Virus record (IMG/VR): IMGVR_UViG_2654587736_000008
Direction: 5' to 3' (one strand)
Length of the DNA stretch: 42,353 nucleotides
Source: a virus
Lineage: Duplodnaviria; Heunggongvirae; Uroviricota; Caudoviricetes
Below, in pieces: positions 62 through 39,750 of the stretch. How positions within the stretch are numbered: position 1 is the stretch's first letter; each line of letters starts with the position of its first letter. The notes under the pieces were generated by a model, which made no database searches, was not told the DNA's origin, and saw nothing but the letters and a program-made list of their open reading frames with translations. Both the position numbers and the translations under genes were made by a program.

Positions 62-310
62 ATGCGTATTGAAATCTGTATAGCCAAAGAAAAAATGACT
101 AAAATGCCAACCGGTGCTGTGGATGCGTTAAAGGAAGAATTAACCCGACGCATCAGTAAACGTTATGACGATGTAGAGGTGATCGTAAAAGCCACCAGCA
201 ACGATGGCCTTTCTGTTACGCGCACCGCCGATAAAGATTCAGCTAAAACTTTTGTTCAGGAAACTCTGAAAGATACCTGGGAGTCTGCTGACGAGTGGTT
301 TGTTCACTAA
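62..310 (+). CDS. dinI: DinI-like DNA-damage-inducible protein (prophage-encoded homologue)
   Basis: 82-aa ORF; N-terminal MRIEI.IAK and C-terminal [15 protein letters not shown] match the DinI family pattern; SD GAGGGA upstream; SOS boxes upstream. Confidence 0.8.
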
Positions 311-25494: not shown

Positions 25495-26547
25495 TTATTT
25501 CCCCACCAGCTCGTTTATCTCTTTCACTGTCTGGTTAAACCGCTCTGACTCAAGCTCAACACCTAAGGCCCGACGCCCCAGCGCCATTGCTGCTTTTATT
25601 GTGGAACCGGATCCCATAAAAAAATCAGCAACCAGATCACCTGGTCGACTACTGGCATTGATTATTTGCCTGAGCATATCCGCCGGTTTCTCACACGGAT
25701 GTTTCCCCGGGTAGAACTGAACGGGTTTATGCATCCAGACATCGGTATAAGGCACGGAGACTGATACGGAGAAATAGCGCCGGAGAGATTTAAACTCATC
25801 CAGCAATTCAGAATATTTGCGATTCAGTGAATCATAAGATGCCACCAGCTGGTGGTGTGGTTGTTCCAGTTGTTGTTCCTGAAACTTCTCTGCCGCTATA
25901 CGGGAAAACAGTGCCTGTAACTTCCGATAGTCAGCCTCATTCGGCAACTGCCACTGACTGGCACCAAACCAGTGGGAAACCATATTTTTCTTACCTGTGG
26001 CTTCGGCAATTTGTTTTGCCGTTATACCCAGTTCGGCACGAGCATCCCTGAAATACGAAATCAGCGGTGCCATTATGTGCTGTTTGAGTTCCCTTTCTTT
26101 TGCCGCATAGCCGTCACTTTTGCCGCGATATGGCCCCTGGTAATGTTCAGCAAACAGAACGCGCTCTGTGGCAGGAAAATATGCACGCAGACTTTCTTTA
26201 TTACACCCATTCCAACGTCCGGACGGCTTCGCCCAGATGATATGGTTAAGCACGTTGAAACGTTCACGCATCATGATCTCAATATCAGATGCCAGGCGAT
26301 GCCCACAGAACAGGTAAAGGCTTCCGGCAGGTTTTAACACCCGCCAGAACTGGGCCAGACAGTGGTCCAGCCACTTAAGGTAATCTTCGTCCCCTTTCCA
26401 CTGATTGTCCCAGCCGTTGGGTTTCACCTTGAAGTACGGCGGATCGGTAACAATCAGGTCAATGGAATCATCAGGCAGGGACTGAATAAAATGCAGGCAA
26501 TCAGCGTTGATTAAATCAACACTGTTTATTTTTACAGTATTTTTCAT
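25495..26547 (-). CDS. DNA N6-adenine methyltransferase, beta-class (DPPY before FxGxG), orphan
   Basis: 350 aa; motif IV VTDPPYF near the N-terminus and SAM-binding DFFMGSGST near the C-terminus; no adjacent restriction gene. Confidence 0.8.
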
Positions 26548-27023: not shown

Positions 27024-27046
27024 AAAAAAAACCGCTCAGCGGCGGG
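27024..27046 (-). terminator. Intrinsic terminator (candidate tR'-like)
   Basis: Minus strand CCGCTGAGCGG hairpin followed by eight T. Confidence 0.5.
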
Positions 27047-27172: not shown

Positions 27173-27619
27173 ATGAATAAAATGACTGTACTATTACTTA
27201 GCGCAACTATCATTTCAGGTTGTACTTCTTCCGTACCATTGATAAAGAAAACTCAATCAGGAAAACCTGAGGGGGTTTATCAAAATACGACAAAAGATAA
27301 AGTCAAAGATGCCCTTGTGAATTACTGCAATAGTAGAGGGTTGATAATTTACAACGCGGATAACAGCAGTGTTATATGTGGTAAAGAACTGGAAGGCGGC
27401 TCTGCTGTTTTTGGACAAATGTTAATCGGAAATGCCTATTCAACAACCCCGGTATCAAAAGTCAGATTTACTATCGCTCAAGTTAATAACGATACAAAAG
27501 TGTGGGCCGATATGTGGATGGAAACTCAAATGGCAATGGGGCAAGTACAACAAATGGCTATAACAGACAACGCAAGCAAAAACACTATCCAACAACGTCT
27601 TGATGAATTAAAACCTTAA
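27173..27619 (+). CDS. Lipoprotein, hypothetical (moron on opposite strand)
   Basis: 148 aa; signal peptide with lipobox LLSATIISGC; gene and flanks are AT-rich; opposite strand to Q and the late genes. Confidence 0.7.
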   Translation: MNKMTVLLLSATIISGCTSSVPLIKKTQSGKPEGVYQNTTKDKVKDALVNYCNSRGLIIYNADNSSVICGKELEGGSAVFGQMLIGNAYSTTPVSKVRFTIAQVNNDTKVWADMWMETQMAMGQVQQMAITDNASKNTIQQRLDELKP

Positions 27620-27703: not shown

Positions 27704-28069
27704 CTAACGATCCATCTCTAGCTCAATTTCTAACATCATTAACATGCCATCAACTACACCTTCAGCCTTTTGCAATAAACGCCCAACCCAGCAATCAGAA
27801 CGCCCATGTTTACGGGCAAGCGCCATAAACGTCATACCACCTACATAATAATCCACTAATAAATCGTGCAAATCGCTGTTGTTCTTTTTCAGGCGAGCCA
27901 TGCACCCACAAATGATCATCGCGTCATCGTCACAACATTGCGGGCGGGATTTTACTTTTGAAGGGATTAGTCCTTTAAATCCTGCAGCAATAGACGACCA
28001 GGTGACATCCTCGTGATTATTTGCCACCCATGCCCCCCAACGTTCAAGAACCATTTGAATATCACGCAT
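27704..28069 (-). CDS. quuD: Late-gene antiterminator Q (phage 21 / QuuD-type)
   Basis: [14 protein letters not shown]...[18 protein letters not shown]...[11 protein letters not shown], as remembered for DLP12 QuuD; ATG 28069 with SD GGAG (ORF track begins at a TTG 28084). Confidence 0.8.
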
Positions 28070-28086: not shown

Positions 28087-29082
28087 TCAGGCCAGCACGC
28101 CAATTGCCAGCGCACGATCGATAAAACGAAATATCAGCTCCAGTTGGGAGCCATACTTCTCTTCAAATGCCACGGTATCCGCATGCAGCTCGTCGTGATG
28201 CTTTCTGCACAAAGGCAACACAAAAAGGTCATGCGCTTTTGTTCCCATTCCACCCTGACCGTGACCTATCAGGTGGTGGGGATCATCAGCAGGCTTTCCA
28301 CAACATGCACACGGCTGTGTCTTAACCCAGCGCGTGTACTTTTCATTAACCCAGCGGCGACGTTTTGGGCGTAACATAAAAGACTCCGGCGACTCTGGAT
28401 CCACTTTCAGCGCCAGCACCTTTTTCGCTTTATCCTGGATGATGCTGGTGGCAGGAACCGAAGGCACAAGGTCACTTTCCCGGGTGACAGACGGCACAAC
28501 AGGCTTCGGTAATCTCAGTGCCTTACGGGCTGCACTTTCCGGTAAGGCATCCGCCAGGTCATTACGAATCAGCCACCAGCACAGTTCCGGCATTGTCACA
28601 ACGTGACTGTCATCAAAACCGAGATCCCGACGCACAACAGACAACACCCAGCGGGTACAGTTATCCGTTGCCATTGATTCCAGCCGTTCCGTGAACTGAT
28701 CGCGCAGCTGGTTATCGCAGTGCCAGCACAGACGGATTGCGCCCGGCGTGTGTCGCATTGTGGTCATGTTCTCGCTGTGCCAGTCGGAATGAGGCCACTG
28801 GCAACCTTTTTCACGAAGTAACCAGCGTTCAAGACATTCCACTCCACCAGCACGACGGATCACTGCCTCATTGCGGAACACGGCCCGAACGGCAGGATCA
28901 TCCGCCAGCGGTTGTGATGCCGCCGGAACGGCACCACTGGCGAAAGATGAATAACGTTCCGGCTCAGGCTCCAGCAGAACACGCCCCTGCATAAACAGGG
29001 GCATCAGCTCTGAACCTGGCCTGAACAATACGATCCCCATACGCGGGGCAATTTCAGGGGTCAGTAGTGCTCTCACGGTCAC
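28087..29082 (-). CDS. DUF968 family protein (HNH-like Cys/His C-terminal motif)
   Basis: 331 aa; C-terminal [21 protein letters not shown]...CRKHHDELH; start uncertain (GTG 29082 or downstream ATG). Confidence 0.65.
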
Positions 29083-29083
29083 C

Positions 29084-29893
29084 TCAATGAACGGTATCGA
29101 GCAGCTTTAACAGCTCAGGGAACCGGGATTCGAAGAAATGCGGCTGCGTCTCGCGCGGATTTGCAGGACTGGTGATGTTCTTGCCGAACATGCAGCCTTT
29201 CGCCGTCAGCGACCAGAATTTTTTGATGTTGTTAATCGCGGTACGGCTGTATCGTTCGCGTTGTTCAACGATCCCCAGCTTCACCATCTGGTGATATGCC
29301 TGATTAGCCGTCAGGCGGATACCATACTGCTTCAGCAGTGCACTCAGCGACAGCGTGGGGCGACTTGAGCCATCAGGCGCGTCAGCAGGAGCATCAATGG
29401 CATAGCGCGGTGCCAGATTCGGTAAGCCAACAGCCTCCTGAAGCTTCTGACAGGCTCCAAGCACTGATGAGTTAGACAGATTTAATTCCCGGCGCATAAA
29501 GTCCAGCAGGATCACGCCAGCCTGCATCTTGTCAGCAGCCTGTCCGGATAATTTTTCCGGTGCGCTGGTTACCATGTCGAAAGTACGGATCACCTTCAGA
29601 TGGAATGACGGGCTGATCCACATTGCATAGGCATACACCAGTTCTTTGCAGACATACGTCCCCTGGTTATTTCCGCCATTAATGACGCTAACTGGTTGAT
29701 TTTGTTCCAGAGGCGGAATTCCACCCTCGGTGAAAAGTTGTTCAATCAATTCACAGGTTTGCTTATTGGAGAGCCAGTATTTCGGGCGGTTTTTTTGTTC
29801 TCCCCCGGCAGCCCTGTGCAGATCGTTCAGGCTGTAACGCCCATAAGCATCACGACGAACTTCAATACCATCAATGACCATCAGATTATTCAT
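29084..29893 (-). CDS. KilA-N domain protein
   Basis: Start MNNLMVIDGIEVRRDAYGRYSLNDLHRAAG (SD AGAGGAGAA); KilA-N-like N-terminal domain. Confidence 0.7.
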   Translation of the reverse strand: MNNLMVIDGIEVRRDAYGRYSLNDLHRAAGGEQKNRPKYWLSNKQTCELIEQLFTEGGIPPLEQNQPVSVINGGNNQGTYVCKELVYAYAMWISPSFHLKVIRTFDMVTSAPEKLSGQAADKMQAGVILLDFMRRELNLSNSSVLGACQKLQEAVGLPNLAPRYAIDAPADAPDGSSRPTLSLSALLKQYGIRLTANQAYHQMVKLGIVEQRERYSRTAINNIKKFWSLTAKGCMFGKNITSPANPRETQPHFFESRFPELLKLLDTVH

Positions 29894-29912
29894 ACTTCGT
29901 TTCTCCTCTTGA

Positions 29913-30302
29913 TCAGGCGGCTGCACCCGCCGTTTTCTCGTACTTACTGATGGTGATCTCGACCTTCCCTTTCGGGATAACCGGTCCCCACTCCACCAGC
30001 ATTCTTTTCACCTGTCTGTCGTCTTCCCACACACCCGCGTGGGTCAACGCGTCAAACAGCGCCTTGTTATAGTTGTCCAGATCGCGGATCCGGTTATCCG
30101 GAGGAAACAACACGATCTCCACTGCAGCAGGTGCCGACGTTGGTTTTGGCAGACGACGTAACTGCTCAACTATTGCTGCGCACGCCGCGCTCTGAAATTT
30201 TCGCCCCGCCGCGCTTATCAGGCTCTTACCAGCAAATGCCCCTTTGTTGGGGTGTCGCCAGTACGTGTTCACGCTGGGCGGGAAAGGCAGGATCAGCTTC
30301 AT
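29913..30302 (-). CDS. rusA: Holliday junction resolvase RusA
   Basis: 129 aa; LPFPPSVNTYWRH...RDLDNYNKALFDALTHAGVWEDD; ATG overlaps upstream stop (ATGA). Confidence 0.85.
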   Translation of the reverse strand: MKLILPFPPSVNTYWRHPNKGAFAGKSLISAAGRKFQSAACAAIVEQLRRLPKPTSAPAAVEIVLFPPDNRIRDLDNYNKALFDALTHAGVWEDDRQVKRMLVEWGPVIPKGKVEITISKYEKTAGAAA

Positions 30303-30625
30303 ACTTTCAGGCCTCTCTCATGTAACCAGTGGGTTGCACGCAGCCTGGCGTTTTCCTCACCGGCAAGCAGTGAGCGGATAATCCCGACCGCCTCGCTGTC
30401 GTCGTCCTTCACCGCGGTATGAAGAGTGATACCCCGGGCCACGCCACGCTTTATCGTGATGACGCCTTTTTTCTCCAGTGCGCGAAGATGTTCCACCGCT
30501 GCATTCACTGAACGGTATCCCAGCATGGTTGCCACCTCCTGATTGGTTGGCGGGAAGCCACGTTCTTTCTGATAAGAAATCAGCATATCCAGCACCTGCT
30601 GCTGGCATTGAGTTAACGTCGTCAT
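30299..30625 (-). CDS. LexA-type N-terminal DNA-binding-domain protein (no peptidase domain)
   Basis: 108 aa; LTQCQQQVLDMLISYQKERGFPPTNQEVATMLGYRSVNAAVEHLRALEKKGVI resembles the LexA wHTH; ATGA overlap with the upstream gene. Confidence 0.55.
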   Translation of the reverse strand: MTTLTQCQQQVLDMLISYQKERGFPPTNQEVATMLGYRSVNAAVEHLRALEKKGVITIKRGVARGITLHTAVKDDDSEAVGIIRSLLAGEENARLRATHWLHERGLKV

Positions 30626-31275
30626 GCCGCCATCTCCCTGAGCAGTTTTTCCGCCTGCTGGCGAACCTGCGCCAGAAACGCCTCACCACATGCCTCAAGT
30701 TCATCGCGCCCGATGTAGCTGATTGCCGGTCCCTTCCAGGTCTTGTCAAAAACAGCAATAGCACCAGCGAAGAAAGCTCCTGTCGGCACCTGCTTCTCGT
30801 CTTTCGGGATAAACCAGACAGGCAGTTCAAAACCAATACGCCCGCGAATAAAAGCAATATGATCTGCATCTTCCGGCCACCACACTTCGCTGGTGGCCGC
30901 TTTGATCAGGAAAACATAGCGCCCGCCCTTATCACGCATGACACTGGCATGTTTCATGATGTAACGCATGCCGGTGATGTATTGCCCCTCATGCTGACTG
31001 GCGCGGCTGTATGGGGGATTACCAAAGGCAGCACCTTTAAGCTCCGCAAGACGTTCTGACCAGTCATGCGCCAGCGCGTTATCTTCCGCCGTGTAATACG
31101 CGGCACATTTGGCGTTATCACCGTCAGTAAACAGATCCAGAACAAACGGGCCAAACAGGGTGTTAATTCCCCAGAAAATGTTGTCCGGCGTGCGCCACTG
31201 ATCGCCCACTTCCTTCAGTTCATGGGCTGGTTTGTTCCGCAGTTCCACCAGCGCCTGGCAATATTTATTACTCAT
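30622..31275 (-). CDS. Phage Dam-type DNA N6-adenine methyltransferase (NPPY family)
   Basis: Start MSNKYCQALVELRN at ATG 31275; FGNPPYS motif. Confidence 0.75.
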   Translation of the reverse strand: MSNKYCQALVELRNKPAHELKEVGDQWRTPDNIFWGINTLFGPFVLDLFTDGDNAKCAAYYTAEDNALAHDWSERLAELKGAAFGNPPYSRASQHEGQYITGMRYIMKHASVMRDKGGRYVFLIKAATSEVWWPEDADHIAFIRGRIGFELPVWFIPKDEKQVPTGAFFAGAIAVFDKTWKGPAISYIGRDELEACGEAFLAQVRQQAEKLLREMAA

Positions 31276-32805: not shown

Positions 32806-33953
32806 TTGCGCCCCCTTACCTCTGAAGGGTTCAGCGACAAATTTATGAGGCAGGCCAGTGCCGAAGCATCATTAATATAGTCATACAAGCTAACAGCCAG
32901 CGGAGATTCGGCTTTTGCCAACATAGGATAAAGCTGCTGCAGCCAGACCTGATGAATTGATGAAATGTAGGAATAGAGAACGCTGGCGTTATGTGCAACG
33001 TCGCTCAGTACAGAGGGATTTGAAAGCTGTTTCTCCATCTGGTTAAAGGCATTGATGTATGCCTCTTTGAACTGGGCAGCACGTTTACCCGTGAAACCCA
33101 TAGCAAGAAACGCAAAGCCGTCGCGGGTTATTTGATAGCAAGGTAGTTTGCGGCCTGTGCAATCGGTGTAATCACTCGCCGAAAAATTGCGGGAAGTGAA
33201 TGATGCAGAGCATTCAAGCGTGCGGATCTTTTTCAGTACATCGTCATGACGTTTGGAGAAGAAGTTGGCAACAGCCAGGGATGAAGTAACAGCCTGACCA
33301 TCAACGATGGCAATTTCAGGTTGAGTGAGGGTTGGGATCGTAGCCATGATGGCAGCCTCTTTGGTGATTTTTAATAACTCACCACCAAGGCTTTCCACGA
33401 CCTTATTGGTGGTGAGACGTACAGGGGTGGAAATACCGGTCACCAAAGAACCCGGCCCAACCGAAGTTGGCCCTGCACGCCCCACCATAATTTGGGCGTA
33501 ATGCTGCTCATTACACAAAAAAACCGCAAGAGCGCGGTTGTGCGCTTTGGTGAATTCCGAGTTTCCACGCCCGGCACCCGCTTTATAAGGTGCCTGAACA
33601 GTGTAACGTCCCGGAATGGCAGAATCAATGTGCTGGTGGTCCTTCACACTCAACAAAATCACGCCTGAATTTCCACAAAGGACTAAAGCACTCATGCGGG
33701 TAGTCTTTGCGAAGATAGATAACGCGCTGTGTTTCTGGCTCCCAACGAATAACATGGACATAAAGCCCTCTTCCGTCACGAAACCAGCGGTTAAGTTCCT
33801 GCACAACTCGCCCCCCACAGTCAGGTAAAGTTCTCTGTGGTTACTTACAGCCAAGTGATTTGGTAATCTGCATTCATGCCGTAACAACAGGTGTTCAGCG
33901 ACACTGACCACCAGCTGTTGCGACAAACGGTTATTTGCCGTTAAACTGTTCAT
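32802..33953 (-). CDS. Rha-family phage regulatory protein with a ~200-aa N-terminal extension (alternative start ATG 33348)
   Basis: pRha domain (IAIVDGQAVTSSLAVANFFSKRHDDVLKKIRTL...YQITRDGFAFLAMGFTGKRAAQFKEAYINAFNQMEKQL) in the C-terminal half; the ORF is open to ATG 33953, which overlaps the upstream stop (ATGA). Confidence 0.6.
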   Translation of the reverse strand: MNSLTANNRLSQQLVVSVAEHLLLRHECRLPNHLAVSNHRELYLTVGGELCRNLTAGFVTEEGFMSMLFVGSQKHSALSIFAKTTRMSALVLCGNSGVILLSVKDHQHIDSAIPGRYTVQAPYKAGAGRGNSEFTKAHNRALAVFLCNEQHYAQIMVGRAGPTSVGPGSLVTGISTPVRLTTNKVVESLGGELLKITKEAAIMATIPTLTQPEIAIVDGQAVTSSLAVANFFSKRHDDVLKKIRTLECSASFTSRNFSASDYTDCTGRKLPCYQITRDGFAFLAMGFTGKRAAQFKEAYINAFNQMEKQLSNPSVLSDVAHNASVLYSYISSIHQVWLQQLYPMLAKAESPLAVSLYDYINDASALACLINLSLNPSEVRGRK

Positions 33954-34851: not shown

Positions 34852-35544
34852 ATGAACATAGGAAATCGAGTCAGACAACTTCGCCAGGCGAAGAACATGA
34901 AAATCGCCGATCTCGCTGAAGCAATAGGAGTGGATGCGGCGAATATCTCGCGCCTCGAAACAGGTAAGCAGAAACAATTCACTGAACAAGCCCTGAGTAA
35001 TATTGCCAGGAGCTTAGGTGTTGATATTGCTGATCTCTTTACCTCAGACCTCAAAAGTAATACTGTATGTAAAAACAGTATTAGTGAGGATGTTGCGCAG
35101 GTGAAGGATGTATTCCGTATTGAAATGCTGGATGTCAGTGCCAGTGCGGGAAATGGCCTTATCCAGGGCGGTGATGTCATTGATGTGATTCATGCCATTG
35201 AATACAGAACTGATAATGCTGTATCGATGTTTGGTGGACGACCAGCAAATCACATTAAAGTTATCAACGTTCGTGGGGACAGTATGTGTCCAACCATTGA
35301 GCCAGGAGATCTCATCTTCGTTGATATCAGTATCAATCAGTTTGATGGGGATGGTATATATGTATTTGGTTTTGATGATAAAATTTACGTCAAACGACTG
35401 CAAATGATACCTGATAAACTGCTGGTAATTTCTGATAATCAGATTTACCGCGAATGGGGAATTACCAGCGAAAACGAACACCGGTTTATGGTCTTTGGAA
35501 AGGTCTTAATCAGTCAGTCACAAACCCTTAAGCGACACAATTAA
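34852..35544 (+). CDS. cI: CI-type prophage repressor (HTH plus S24 LexA-like peptidase domain)
   Basis: 230 aa; N-terminal HTH; Ala-Gly (SASAGNG) candidate cleavage site; S24 Ser in GDSM and Lys in VKRL. Confidence 0.85.
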   Translation: MNIGNRVRQLRQAKNMKIADLAEAIGVDAANISRLETGKQKQFTEQALSNIARSLGVDIADLFTSDLKSNTVCKNSISEDVAQVKDVFRIEMLDVSASAGNGLIQGGDVIDVIHAIEYRTDNAVSMFGGRPANHIKVINVRGDSMCPTIEPGDLIFVDISINQFDGDGIYVFGFDDKIYVKRLQMIPDKLLVISDNQIYREWGITSENEHRFMVFGKVLISQSQTLKRHN

Positions 35545-38978: not shown

Positions 38979-39750
38979 CTATCAGGCGTTGCGTAAGGCA
39001 GCACAAAACTATCAATCGACTCTGGCGTGGTATCAGGAAAAGCCAGACAGTCCAAACGCTGAACAGGATTGTGATGCAGCTTTAGCGGCGTTTAAGCGAG
39101 AAATCCGTCATCGGGAAGTGGACATTATCGCCGGGCTGTTGGATGAGCTGGACGAAAAACAGCAATACATCAAACTCCGCGACCAGGAGAACGAGGATAT
39201 TGCGCTAACGGTAGGGAAGCTGAGAGTTGAGCTTGAGGAGACAAAATCAAAACTCAACGAGCAGCGTGTGTATTACGAGGGAGTAATCGCGGATGGAAGT
39301 AAGCGCATAGCAGAGTTGCAGACAAAATCTGCACCAGATTCGTTTGGCATCATCGGTGAAAATATTCGAACACAGGACAATCATATAACGTCAGACCCTA
39401 TGTTTTGTGTGTATCAAAAGCGCGAAATCGTTGTTGATGCTGATTATGACTATGACCGGATTGTCTGGGTTGATGAAGATGGCAATGAAGCCAATAAACT
39501 CCAAAGTCGTCGTCTCGAACTACTTCATGAAAACTTTCGGGAGCCACCAGAAAAATGGCGGCGCGTTGCTGTGAAAGATATTGATGAATTCGTTACCTGC
39601 TGTTTTACCGAACAGGGTTGTAAAGACTACCTGGCAGCCAATGGTCACAATCTTCGCTTGCCATTTATATATGTAAAAAGCGGTTTCAGGAACGCTGAAT
39701 ATATCGGCATAAGAAACTGGCTTGCTGGCATTCGCATCAAAGGAGAGTGA
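38965..39750 (+). CDS. Hypothetical protein, N-terminal coiled coil (261 aa)
   Basis: GTG 38965 preceded by AGGAGG; the portion of the ORF-track ORF upstream of this start is rejected. Confidence 0.5.
   Translation: MSEIDYQALRKAAQNYQSTLAWYQEKPDSPNAEQDCDAALAAFKREIRHREVDIIAGLLDELDEKQQYIKLRDQENEDIALTVGKLRVELEETKSKLNEQRVYYEGVIADGSKRIAELQTKSAPDSFGIIGENIRTQDNHITSDPMFCVYQKREIVVDADYDYDRIVWVDEDGNEANKLQSRRLELLHENFREPPEKWRRVAVKDIDEFVTCCFTEQGCKDYLAANGHNLRLPFIYVKSGFRNAEYIGIRNWLAGIRIKGE

Follow-up and report, generated by a model that had tools for sequence, protein, structure and literature searches.

In the LexA repressor, the S24 domain is at once the RecA-activated, self-cleaving part of the chain and its dimerisation domain. 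When a heterologous dimerisation domain is supplied by fusion, LexA(1-87) acts as a repressor at SOS operators, which is the basis of LexA-based bacterial two-hybrid systems, and in the work of Schnarr and Granger-Schnarr a foreign dimeriser fused to the LexA DNA-binding domain is said to have restored repression at SOS operators. A LexA DNA-binding domain apart from S24 also occurs naturally as LexA(1-84), a short-lived cleavage intermediate. Phage-encoded LexA heads without a protease are already known: gp6 of the Bacillus tectivirus GIL01, a phage tied to the host SOS response, is an early-operon product that consists essentially of the LexA_DNA_bind domain without a cleavage domain, binds the palindrome GaCACAnnTGTGaC and activates the late promoter P3 (PMC6182141). 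Here, we analysed a 42,353-nucleotide (nt) stretch of DNA from a virus of the Caudoviricetes (IMG/VR record IMGVR_UViG_2654587736_000008, hereafter the window), in which a block of phage genes encodes a 108-amino-acid (aa) LexA-like protein. Judged from its sequence, this protein is a phage derivative of the gammaproteobacterial LexA N-terminal domain in which S24 has been exchanged for a short, conserved helical hairpin, and it may act, with a likelihood that we place a little below even, as a RecA-resistant repressor at SOS-type operators during lytic growth.

Pfam LexA_DNA_bind (PF01726) matched the LexA-like protein over the whole profile (positions 1-65 of 65; 69 bits, E = 2.9e-19), and Pfam returned no Peptidase_S24 match in the chain, which ends at residue 108; the domain that carries the Ser119/Lys156 dyad and the dimer interface of LexA repressors is absent. 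The lexA equivalog TIGR00498 was matched at profile positions 1-91 of 203 only (70.8 bits, cutoff 110.95). An initial annotation, made from the letters alone, had proposed a LexA-type binding protein without a peptidase and had made this depend on a LexA_DNA_bind profile match; the match is strong and full-length, and to that extent the proposal is borne out. Its description of the protein as resembling only the LexA DNA-binding domain holds for the identity of that domain, but overlooks a conserved C-terminal two-helix module. Against PDB sequences, phmmer aligned residues 2-69 to the N-terminal domain of E. coli LexA (51% identity), with the alignment reaching LexA residue 86. The AlphaFold model (mean predicted local distance difference test score, pLDDT, 81) contains the three helices and two-strand wing of LexA, and Foldseek superposed residues 1-68 on DNA-bound LexA (3jso) at 1.0 Å over 66-68 residues and 51% identity (1.0-1.2 Å root-mean-square deviation for 1lea and 3jso), consistent with the same winged helix-turn-helix. 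The recognition helix reads RSVNAAVEHLRAL, compared with RSPNAAEEHLKAL in LexA. Of the five helix-3 residues with which LexA contacts DNA, Ser39, Asn41, Ala42, Glu44 and Glu45 (PMC3091678), the window protein keeps all except Glu44, which is replaced by Val; His46 and the wing residues K53, R64, G65 and I66 are also retained, and Pro40 is changed to Val.

Unlike E. coli LexA, the phage protein carries a 35-residue tail in place of the C-terminal domain, modelled as a low-confidence linker (residues 71-75) followed by helices at 74-87 and 93-103, for which Foldseek found no structural match. PHROG 362 ('transcriptional repressor') matched residues 1-108 over its entire length (profile positions 1-106 of 106; 200 bits, E = 1.1e-59), tail included. 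Tail-bearing relatives reach down to about 38% identity in an exhaustive HMMER search; in their alignment the wing residues K53, I56, R64, G65 and I66 are invariant, and the hydrophobic pattern of the tail (I82, I83, L86, L87, A93, A97 and L101) is kept down to the same 38%. As judged by the conservation of this pattern across the family, the tail is a genuine module under selection. Two helices that form a hairpin on a flexible tether and share a conserved hydrophobic face are most simply read as a dimeriser, and we infer that the tail is a dimerisation module and that the protein may bind CTGT-N8-ACAG as a dimer. At the position of the LexA autocleavage site, Ala84-Gly85, the A88-G89 of the window protein gives way to N, V, R, D or other residues in its relatives; the AGE motif is unconserved and there is therefore no cleavage site. 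With neither S24 nor a conserved cleavage site, the phage protein should not be cleavable through RecA, and any oligomerisation would have to follow another route. In this it recalls the engineered LexA(1-87) fusions and LexA(1-84), from which it differs in being a conserved natural phage gene, with dimerisation presumed to lie in the tail.

The sequence likeness to GIL01 gp6 is confined to the PF01726 match. BLASTP produced no alignment between the two proteins at E<=100, so that no homology beyond the Pfam domain is apparent and they look like separate captures of the LexA head in different host lineages. Unlike the window protein, gp6 is only 66 aa long, lacks a helical tail and has Lys38 in its recognition helix; it serves late control at P3, and in the window late control belongs to the antiterminator Q.

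The window is enriched in SOS boxes. Six perfect CTGT-N8-ACAG sites are present (positions 3, 31, 26522, 33835, 35063 and 39600) compared with 0.57 expected, a number reached by none of 100 shuffles, and no other spacing of CTGT-Nx-ACAG (x = 0-16) was enriched in the whole window. With a rough position weight matrix made from E. coli SOS boxes, four of the sites obtain scores in the range spanned by known LexA sites (0.2 expected), and those at 33835, inside Rha, and at 39600 score below it. The initial annotation had placed SOS boxes before a dinI-like gene, and two of the four strong sites are found there (Table 1). A third lies within the linker-coding part of the cI repressor gene, in a segment that is poorly conserved; the box recurs at the same codon position in the 68% identical cI of another phage locus (L012), as an island of identity inside a 47-57% identical stretch. 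A promoter scan at this cI-internal box found none at threshold on either strand. The fourth occupies the 5' end of a late-region DNA methyltransferase gene. The likely late promoter, with its terminator (27031-27043), lies some 550 nt upstream of this box, which is also present in SfV, in L001 and in the divergent L011. The dinI-like gene with its two boxes stands at the prophage end by the tail-fibre genes, as in mEp460 and cdtI, and is followed by a 101-aa open reading frame (ORF; 394-699) without a Pfam match.

Further indication of an SOS-related role comes from distant relatives of the protein. Those at 38-51% identity span three replication modules (HTH_36/Phg_2220_C, lambda O/P-like, and DnaT plus DnaC-like), and in nearly all of them RusA, DUF968 and a Q-type antiterminator closely follow the LexA-like gene, which is itself often preceded by a DNA methyltransferase. 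A second architecture was found in a divergent subfamily from Klebsiella phages, phages of other hosts and many IMG/VR contigs, where a strong SOS box stands at the head of the cassette and overlaps with a sigma-70-like promoter, such as TTGAAC-17-TATACT with TACTGTTTATTTATACAGTA. After the box come dinI or a RecA_C-only gene, a conserved 75-96-aa ORF, the LexA-like gene, a 67-aa ORF and, in some cases, RusA, then DUF968 and Q. This SOS-box-headed form accounts for 28 of the 34 IMG/VR loci related to the family protein P0138, with the other six of the Dam/RusA type; the dinI-type cassettes (L013, L097, L098, L106-L127 and L134, from Klebsiella-type phages and IMG/VR contigs) lack RusA and retain the LexA-like gene. 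No homologues of the cassette partner ORFs (orfX and orfY) were found in the window. In the SOS-box-headed cassettes the LexA-like gene is co-transcribed with dinI or the RecA_C-only gene. dinI is an SOS-damping gene, and the company that the LexA-like gene keeps with known SOS modulators under LexA control offers circumstantial support for a function connected with the SOS response. The RecA_C-only gene encodes a RecA C-terminal-domain-only protein of about 95 aa (Pfam RecA_C, 39 bits), seen in L014 (4975-5262) and also in L117, L125 and L126, right after the SOS box and ahead of the LexA-like gene; it could be a modulator of RecA or LexA. In the dinI-type cassettes the SOS-controlled promoter stands directly upstream of the late antiterminator gene.

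Taken with the fold of the head, the contact and wing residues, the conserved tail and the missing peptidase, the enrichment of SOS boxes and the SOS-box/dinI relatives support binding at SOS operators. In the mechanism that we propose, the LexA-like protein would be expressed from PR as a delayed-early product, downstream of cro, the replication genes and Dam, and only once the prophage is induced or the phage is infecting, with its translation coupled to that of Dam and RusA. Host LexA would already have been cleaved at that stage, and the phage protein, dimerised by its tail into a DNA-damage-insensitive repressor that recognises CTGT-type half-sites, would re-occupy SOS-type operators. Candidate targets are the host SOS regulon, the boxes of the prophage dinI promoter and the two orphan boxes, one within cI and the other in the early codons of the late methyltransferase gene, and the net effect would be an SOS off switch under phage control. 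Competition by the LexA-like protein at SOS boxes is plausible on these grounds. A broader proposal, which we regard as speculative and rather unlikely, is that enterobacterial temperate phages hold a dedicated anti-SOS toolkit. Here the RecA-proof surrogate would shut the host SOS regulon after lytic commitment, and would also act on rival prophages by silencing their SOS-triggered antirepressors, and on its own phage by silencing the genes with SOS boxes, cI with its internal operator among them; in the sister lineage, an SOS-box promoter with DinI or the RecA C-terminal fragment would form a self-limiting SOS feedback cassette feeding into Q.

Several points weigh against an SOS-operator repressor. 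Position 44 is never Glu in tail-bearing members (V, A, T, F, Y or L), and Glu44 was present in 11 of the 13 full-length LexA homologues sampled, a census restricted to the full-length set because the short matches were contaminated by truncated fragments of genuine LexA. Positions 41, 42 and 45 vary within the family, some members changing Glu45 or Asn41, and in the dinI-cassette subfamily, where helix 3 reads SSPNAVALHL, Glu45 is lost as well; specificity is therefore non-uniform and may differ from that of LexA. The geometry of the putative dimer would set the spacing of the half-sites, which may thus differ from that of the SOS box. There is no SOS box near the LexA-like gene in phages of the window's type, and host LexA alone could account for every SOS box found. 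Our literature search found no experimental work on the enterobacterial LexA-head-plus-tail family, and gp6 of GIL01, the only phage LexA truncation to have been characterised, is an activator whose palindrome is not an SOS box (PMC6182141).

In an alternative that we consider possible but rather unlikely, the LexA-like protein would recognise an operator that has drifted away from the SOS box, as with gp6, and would serve as a phage-specific transcription factor that represses or activates one or a few phage promoters and leaves the host SOS regulon untouched. Besides that precedent, the family-wide loss of Glu44 and the variable positions 41, 42 and 45 would suit a private operator, a different dimerisation module could impose another spacing, and short proteins made up of LexA_DNA_bind alone are often encoded by phages from a wide range of hosts, as seen among viral structure predictions. 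However, the window protein retains four of the five LexA contact residues together with the wing, N8 is the only CTGT-Nx-ACAG spacing enriched in the prophage, late-gene activation is already served by the downstream Q, and no candidate non-SOS operator was identified in the window.

The gene neighbourhood bears on a further alternative. Four minus-strand genes are present at 28087-30625, as initially annotated, and Pfam upheld the domain assigned to each of them (DUF968, KilA-N, RusA and LexA DNA-binding). On one strand, the gene order runs HTH_36 replication protein, PerC, Dam, LexA-like, RusA, KilA-N, DUF968 and Q, with cro, a CII-like gene, Rha/Ash and a 74-aa ORF (hyp74) farther upstream of this replication protein, which is HTH_36/DnaD-like. 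Like the nin region of lambdoid phages, the block consists of small, packed genes between the replication genes and Q and includes a Holliday-junction resolvase; this position in a lambdoid prophage confirms the nin-like character assigned to it before. The HNHc_6 match in the DUF968 protein, at 26.9 bits, is barely above the Pfam cutoff, and the start chosen for this gene by the Prokaryotic Genome Annotation Pipeline (PGAP) is a GTG at 29076 (length 990 nt). Every gene junction of the operon was spelled out from the sequence. The four genes had been described as joined by successive ATGA overlaps, which is correct for LexA-like>RusA and not for the other two internal junctions (one of three). 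The actual run of 1- and 4-nt overlaps extends upstream instead, through Rha>hyp74>HTH_36>PerC>Dam>LexA-like>RusA. Dam, LexA-like and RusA make up its tightly coupled part, and the LexA-like gene, translationally coupled to Dam on its upstream side and to RusA on its downstream side, has its place in the early-right (PR) operon. No terminator was predicted on the coding strand from Dam to DUF968.

Table 1. Coordinates of genes, SOS boxes and gene junctions in the window.
Feature	Position	Strand	Description
LexA-like gene, 108 aa	30299..30625	minus	LexA-N-terminal-domain-like winged helix plus two-helix C-terminal tail, no S24 peptidase domain; PHROG 362; WP_000210170.1
RusA-family Holliday-junction resolvase	29913..30302	minus	Pfam RusA 55 bits
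KilA-N domain protein, 269 aa	29084..29893	minus	From ATG 29893 (start used by PGAP, 810 nt); Pfam KilA-N 94 bits; PHROG 129
DUF968 (YdfU-like) protein	28087..29082	minus	C-terminal HNH-type motif; Pfam DUF968 272 bits; PHROG 96 'HNH endonuclease'
Phage Dam N6-adenine methyltransferase (upstream flank)	30622..31275	minus	Pfam Dam 155 bits; PGAP start
Antiterminator Q (downstream flank, end of nin-like block)	27704..28069	minus	Pfam Phage_antitermQ 173 bits; PGAP 366 nt
cI repressor gene	34852-35544		HTH_3 and Peptidase_S24 domains
dinI-like gene	62-310		NCBIfam DinI NF007893 match 73 bits, below 111-bit cutoff
SOS boxes CACTGTTTATCCATACAGTT and TACTGTATACAAACACAGTA	1-20 and 29-48 (cores 3-18 and 31-46)	+	Perfect CTGT-N8-ACAG; upstream of dinI-like gene; scores 21.4 and 23.6
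SOS box TACTGTATGTAAAAACAGTA	35061-35080		Within linker-coding part of cI; score 25.8, window's best; near-consensus; candidate operator
SOS box CACTGTTTATTTTTACAGTA	26520-26539		Codons 4-9 of late-region N6_N4 DNA methyltransferase gene (25495-26547, minus); score 22.5; candidate operator
Junctions Rha>hyp74 and hyp74>HTH_36			ATGA overlaps
Junction HTH_36>PerC			GTGA overlap
Junction PerC>Dam			TAATG, 1-nt overlap
Junction Dam>LexA-like	30622-30625		ATGA overlap (Dam stop / LexA-like ATG)
Junction LexA-like>RusA	30299-30302		ATGA overlap (RusA ATG / LexA-like stop)
Junction RusA>KilA-N	stop 29913, ATG 29893		19-nt spacer including GAGGAG Shine-Dalgarno (ribosome-binding site)
Junction KilA-N>DUF968			Reads TGAgGTGaccGTG; no ATGA overlap
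Junction DUF968>Q			17-nt spacer

Such close linkage would suit a role, which we consider improbable, in which the LexA-like protein binds DNA in support of the neighbouring recombination and nuclease genes (RusA, DUF968/HNH and often a DNA methyltransferase) and might target or modulate them on replicating phage DNA instead of controlling transcription. Synteny is strict: among 80 IMG/VR loci whose protein is 99-100% identical, RusA lies directly downstream of the LexA-like gene in all 80 and Dam upstream in 56, the ATGA overlap being present at the LexA-like start in 80 and at its stop in 79. The order LexA-like, (RusA), DUF968, Q is moreover kept at 38-51% identity across the three replication modules, and the position typical of PHROG 362, in a nin-like region upstream of RusA, DUF968 and Q, is shared by the window, all 80 close loci and the distant relatives. 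Yet nin-region modules are inherited as blocks, so that linkage alone can explain the synteny of LexA-like, RusA and DUF968, and the dinI-type cassettes keep the LexA-like gene when RusA is missing. We also take RusA and DUF968 to be widespread without a LexA-like gene, for example in DLP12 and Qin, and the protein, a winged helix-turn-helix of the sequence-specific kind, has kept its recognition residues.

Far less probable is that the protein enters the RecA*/LexA cleavage pathway as a decoy or a substrate, a reading suggested by the alignment of the start of the tail (S-L-L-A88-G89-E90) with the Ala84-Gly85 region of LexA and by the extent of the TIGR00498 match over profile positions 1-91. 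The HMMER alignment to LexA residue 86 does set AGE on AGE (A84-G85-E86), and the tail was accordingly considered as a relic of the LexA cleavage site; this was rejected, as the motif is unconserved in relatives, which carry ANE, VGE, ERE and others at this place (LLANE, LVGE, VERE, IDDQ). The stretch is also modelled as helix rather than the strand-loop of LexA, and an S24 domain with which RecA* could interact is missing. Least credible of all is the idea that a captured lexA fragment survives here as a relic without function, despite occasional frameshifted or fused database variants (P0034, P0111 and P0001), given that the full-length protein, including its non-LexA tail, is conserved in E. 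coli, Klebsiella, Buttiauxella and other hosts at 38-100% identity, that at least 585 viral contigs carry the gene, and that start/stop coupling is preserved in 79-80 of the 80 close loci.

The LexA-like gene is a member of an abundant and already annotated phage family. Of 5426 complete E. coli genomes, 1604 contain the 3.8-kb block at >=80% coverage, and it occurs in the named phages SfV (orf42, 'unknown'), SfII, SfIV, mEp460 (gp46), cdtI, Ayreon and 1720a-02 and in Stx2a and Stx2c converting phages. No difference separates the window protein from this family of PHROG 362 and WP_000210170.1, to which the SfV, mEp460, cdtI, SfII, SfIV and Stx2a/c homologues belong, with proteins that are 97-100% identical and share the Dam-LexA-like-RusA context. 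RefSeq names WP_000210170.1 a 'LexA family transcriptional regulator'; the names given to the family are purely computational and some are wrong, such as 'SOS-response repressor and protease LexA' and 'RecA-mediated autopeptidases', and the table of a Stx-phage survey has an entry for the family as a 'pham' (pfam01726; PMC8136144). In a profile scan of genome contigs for distant members, nearly all matches were genuine lexA genes (Halomonas, Vibrio and others), the sole family member being L016, from Buttiauxella.

To what was already annotated, our analysis adds the conserved tail, the loss of Glu44, the SOS-box/dinI/RecA_C cassette of the sister lineages and the orphan SOS boxes of the prophage, which in combination make a specific hypothesis that is cheap to test. 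If SOS boxes are indeed bound by the LexA-like protein, a phage gene able to override the host DNA-damage response after the destruction of LexA would be present in about 30% of complete E. coli genomes, and in Shigella serotype-converting and Stx2a/Stx2c phages as well. It would then have a bearing on the induction dynamics of Shiga-toxin phages, on cross-talk among co-resident prophages with LexA-controlled antirepressors and on SOS-dependent mutagenesis under antibiotics, and would represent a natural domain swap by which a signal-sensitive repressor became a signal-blind one. If its operator differs from the SOS box, the protein would be one more phage-specific regulator in the mosaic nin region, and of modest interest.

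Some further observations concern the family and its surroundings. Tandem LexA_DNA_bind domains, two per chain, occur in P0132, P0133, P0149, P0152 and other database proteins, possibly a natural form of the LexA-head dimer in a single chain. Frameshifted LexA-like variants are present in some genomes, along with fusions to Dam or to the upstream gene (P0034, P0111, P0001, P0022 and P0098), reflecting either occasional decay or errors of assembly or annotation. A conserved nucleotide stretch, CTGAACAaCCaGC.ACCTGCTGCGCCaCGGAGA, abuts the LexA-like start codon on its 5' side in L007 (6950-7000), L011 (6960-7000) and L014 (5620-5665), phages whose proteins are only about 40-55% identical, and may be a translational or RNA element. 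Finally, a 148-aa ORF on the plus strand (27173-27619), with a lipoprotein-like signal (LLSATIISGC), lies in reverse orientation between Q and the late promoter region of the window and looks like a moron gene, that is, an insert with its own expression.

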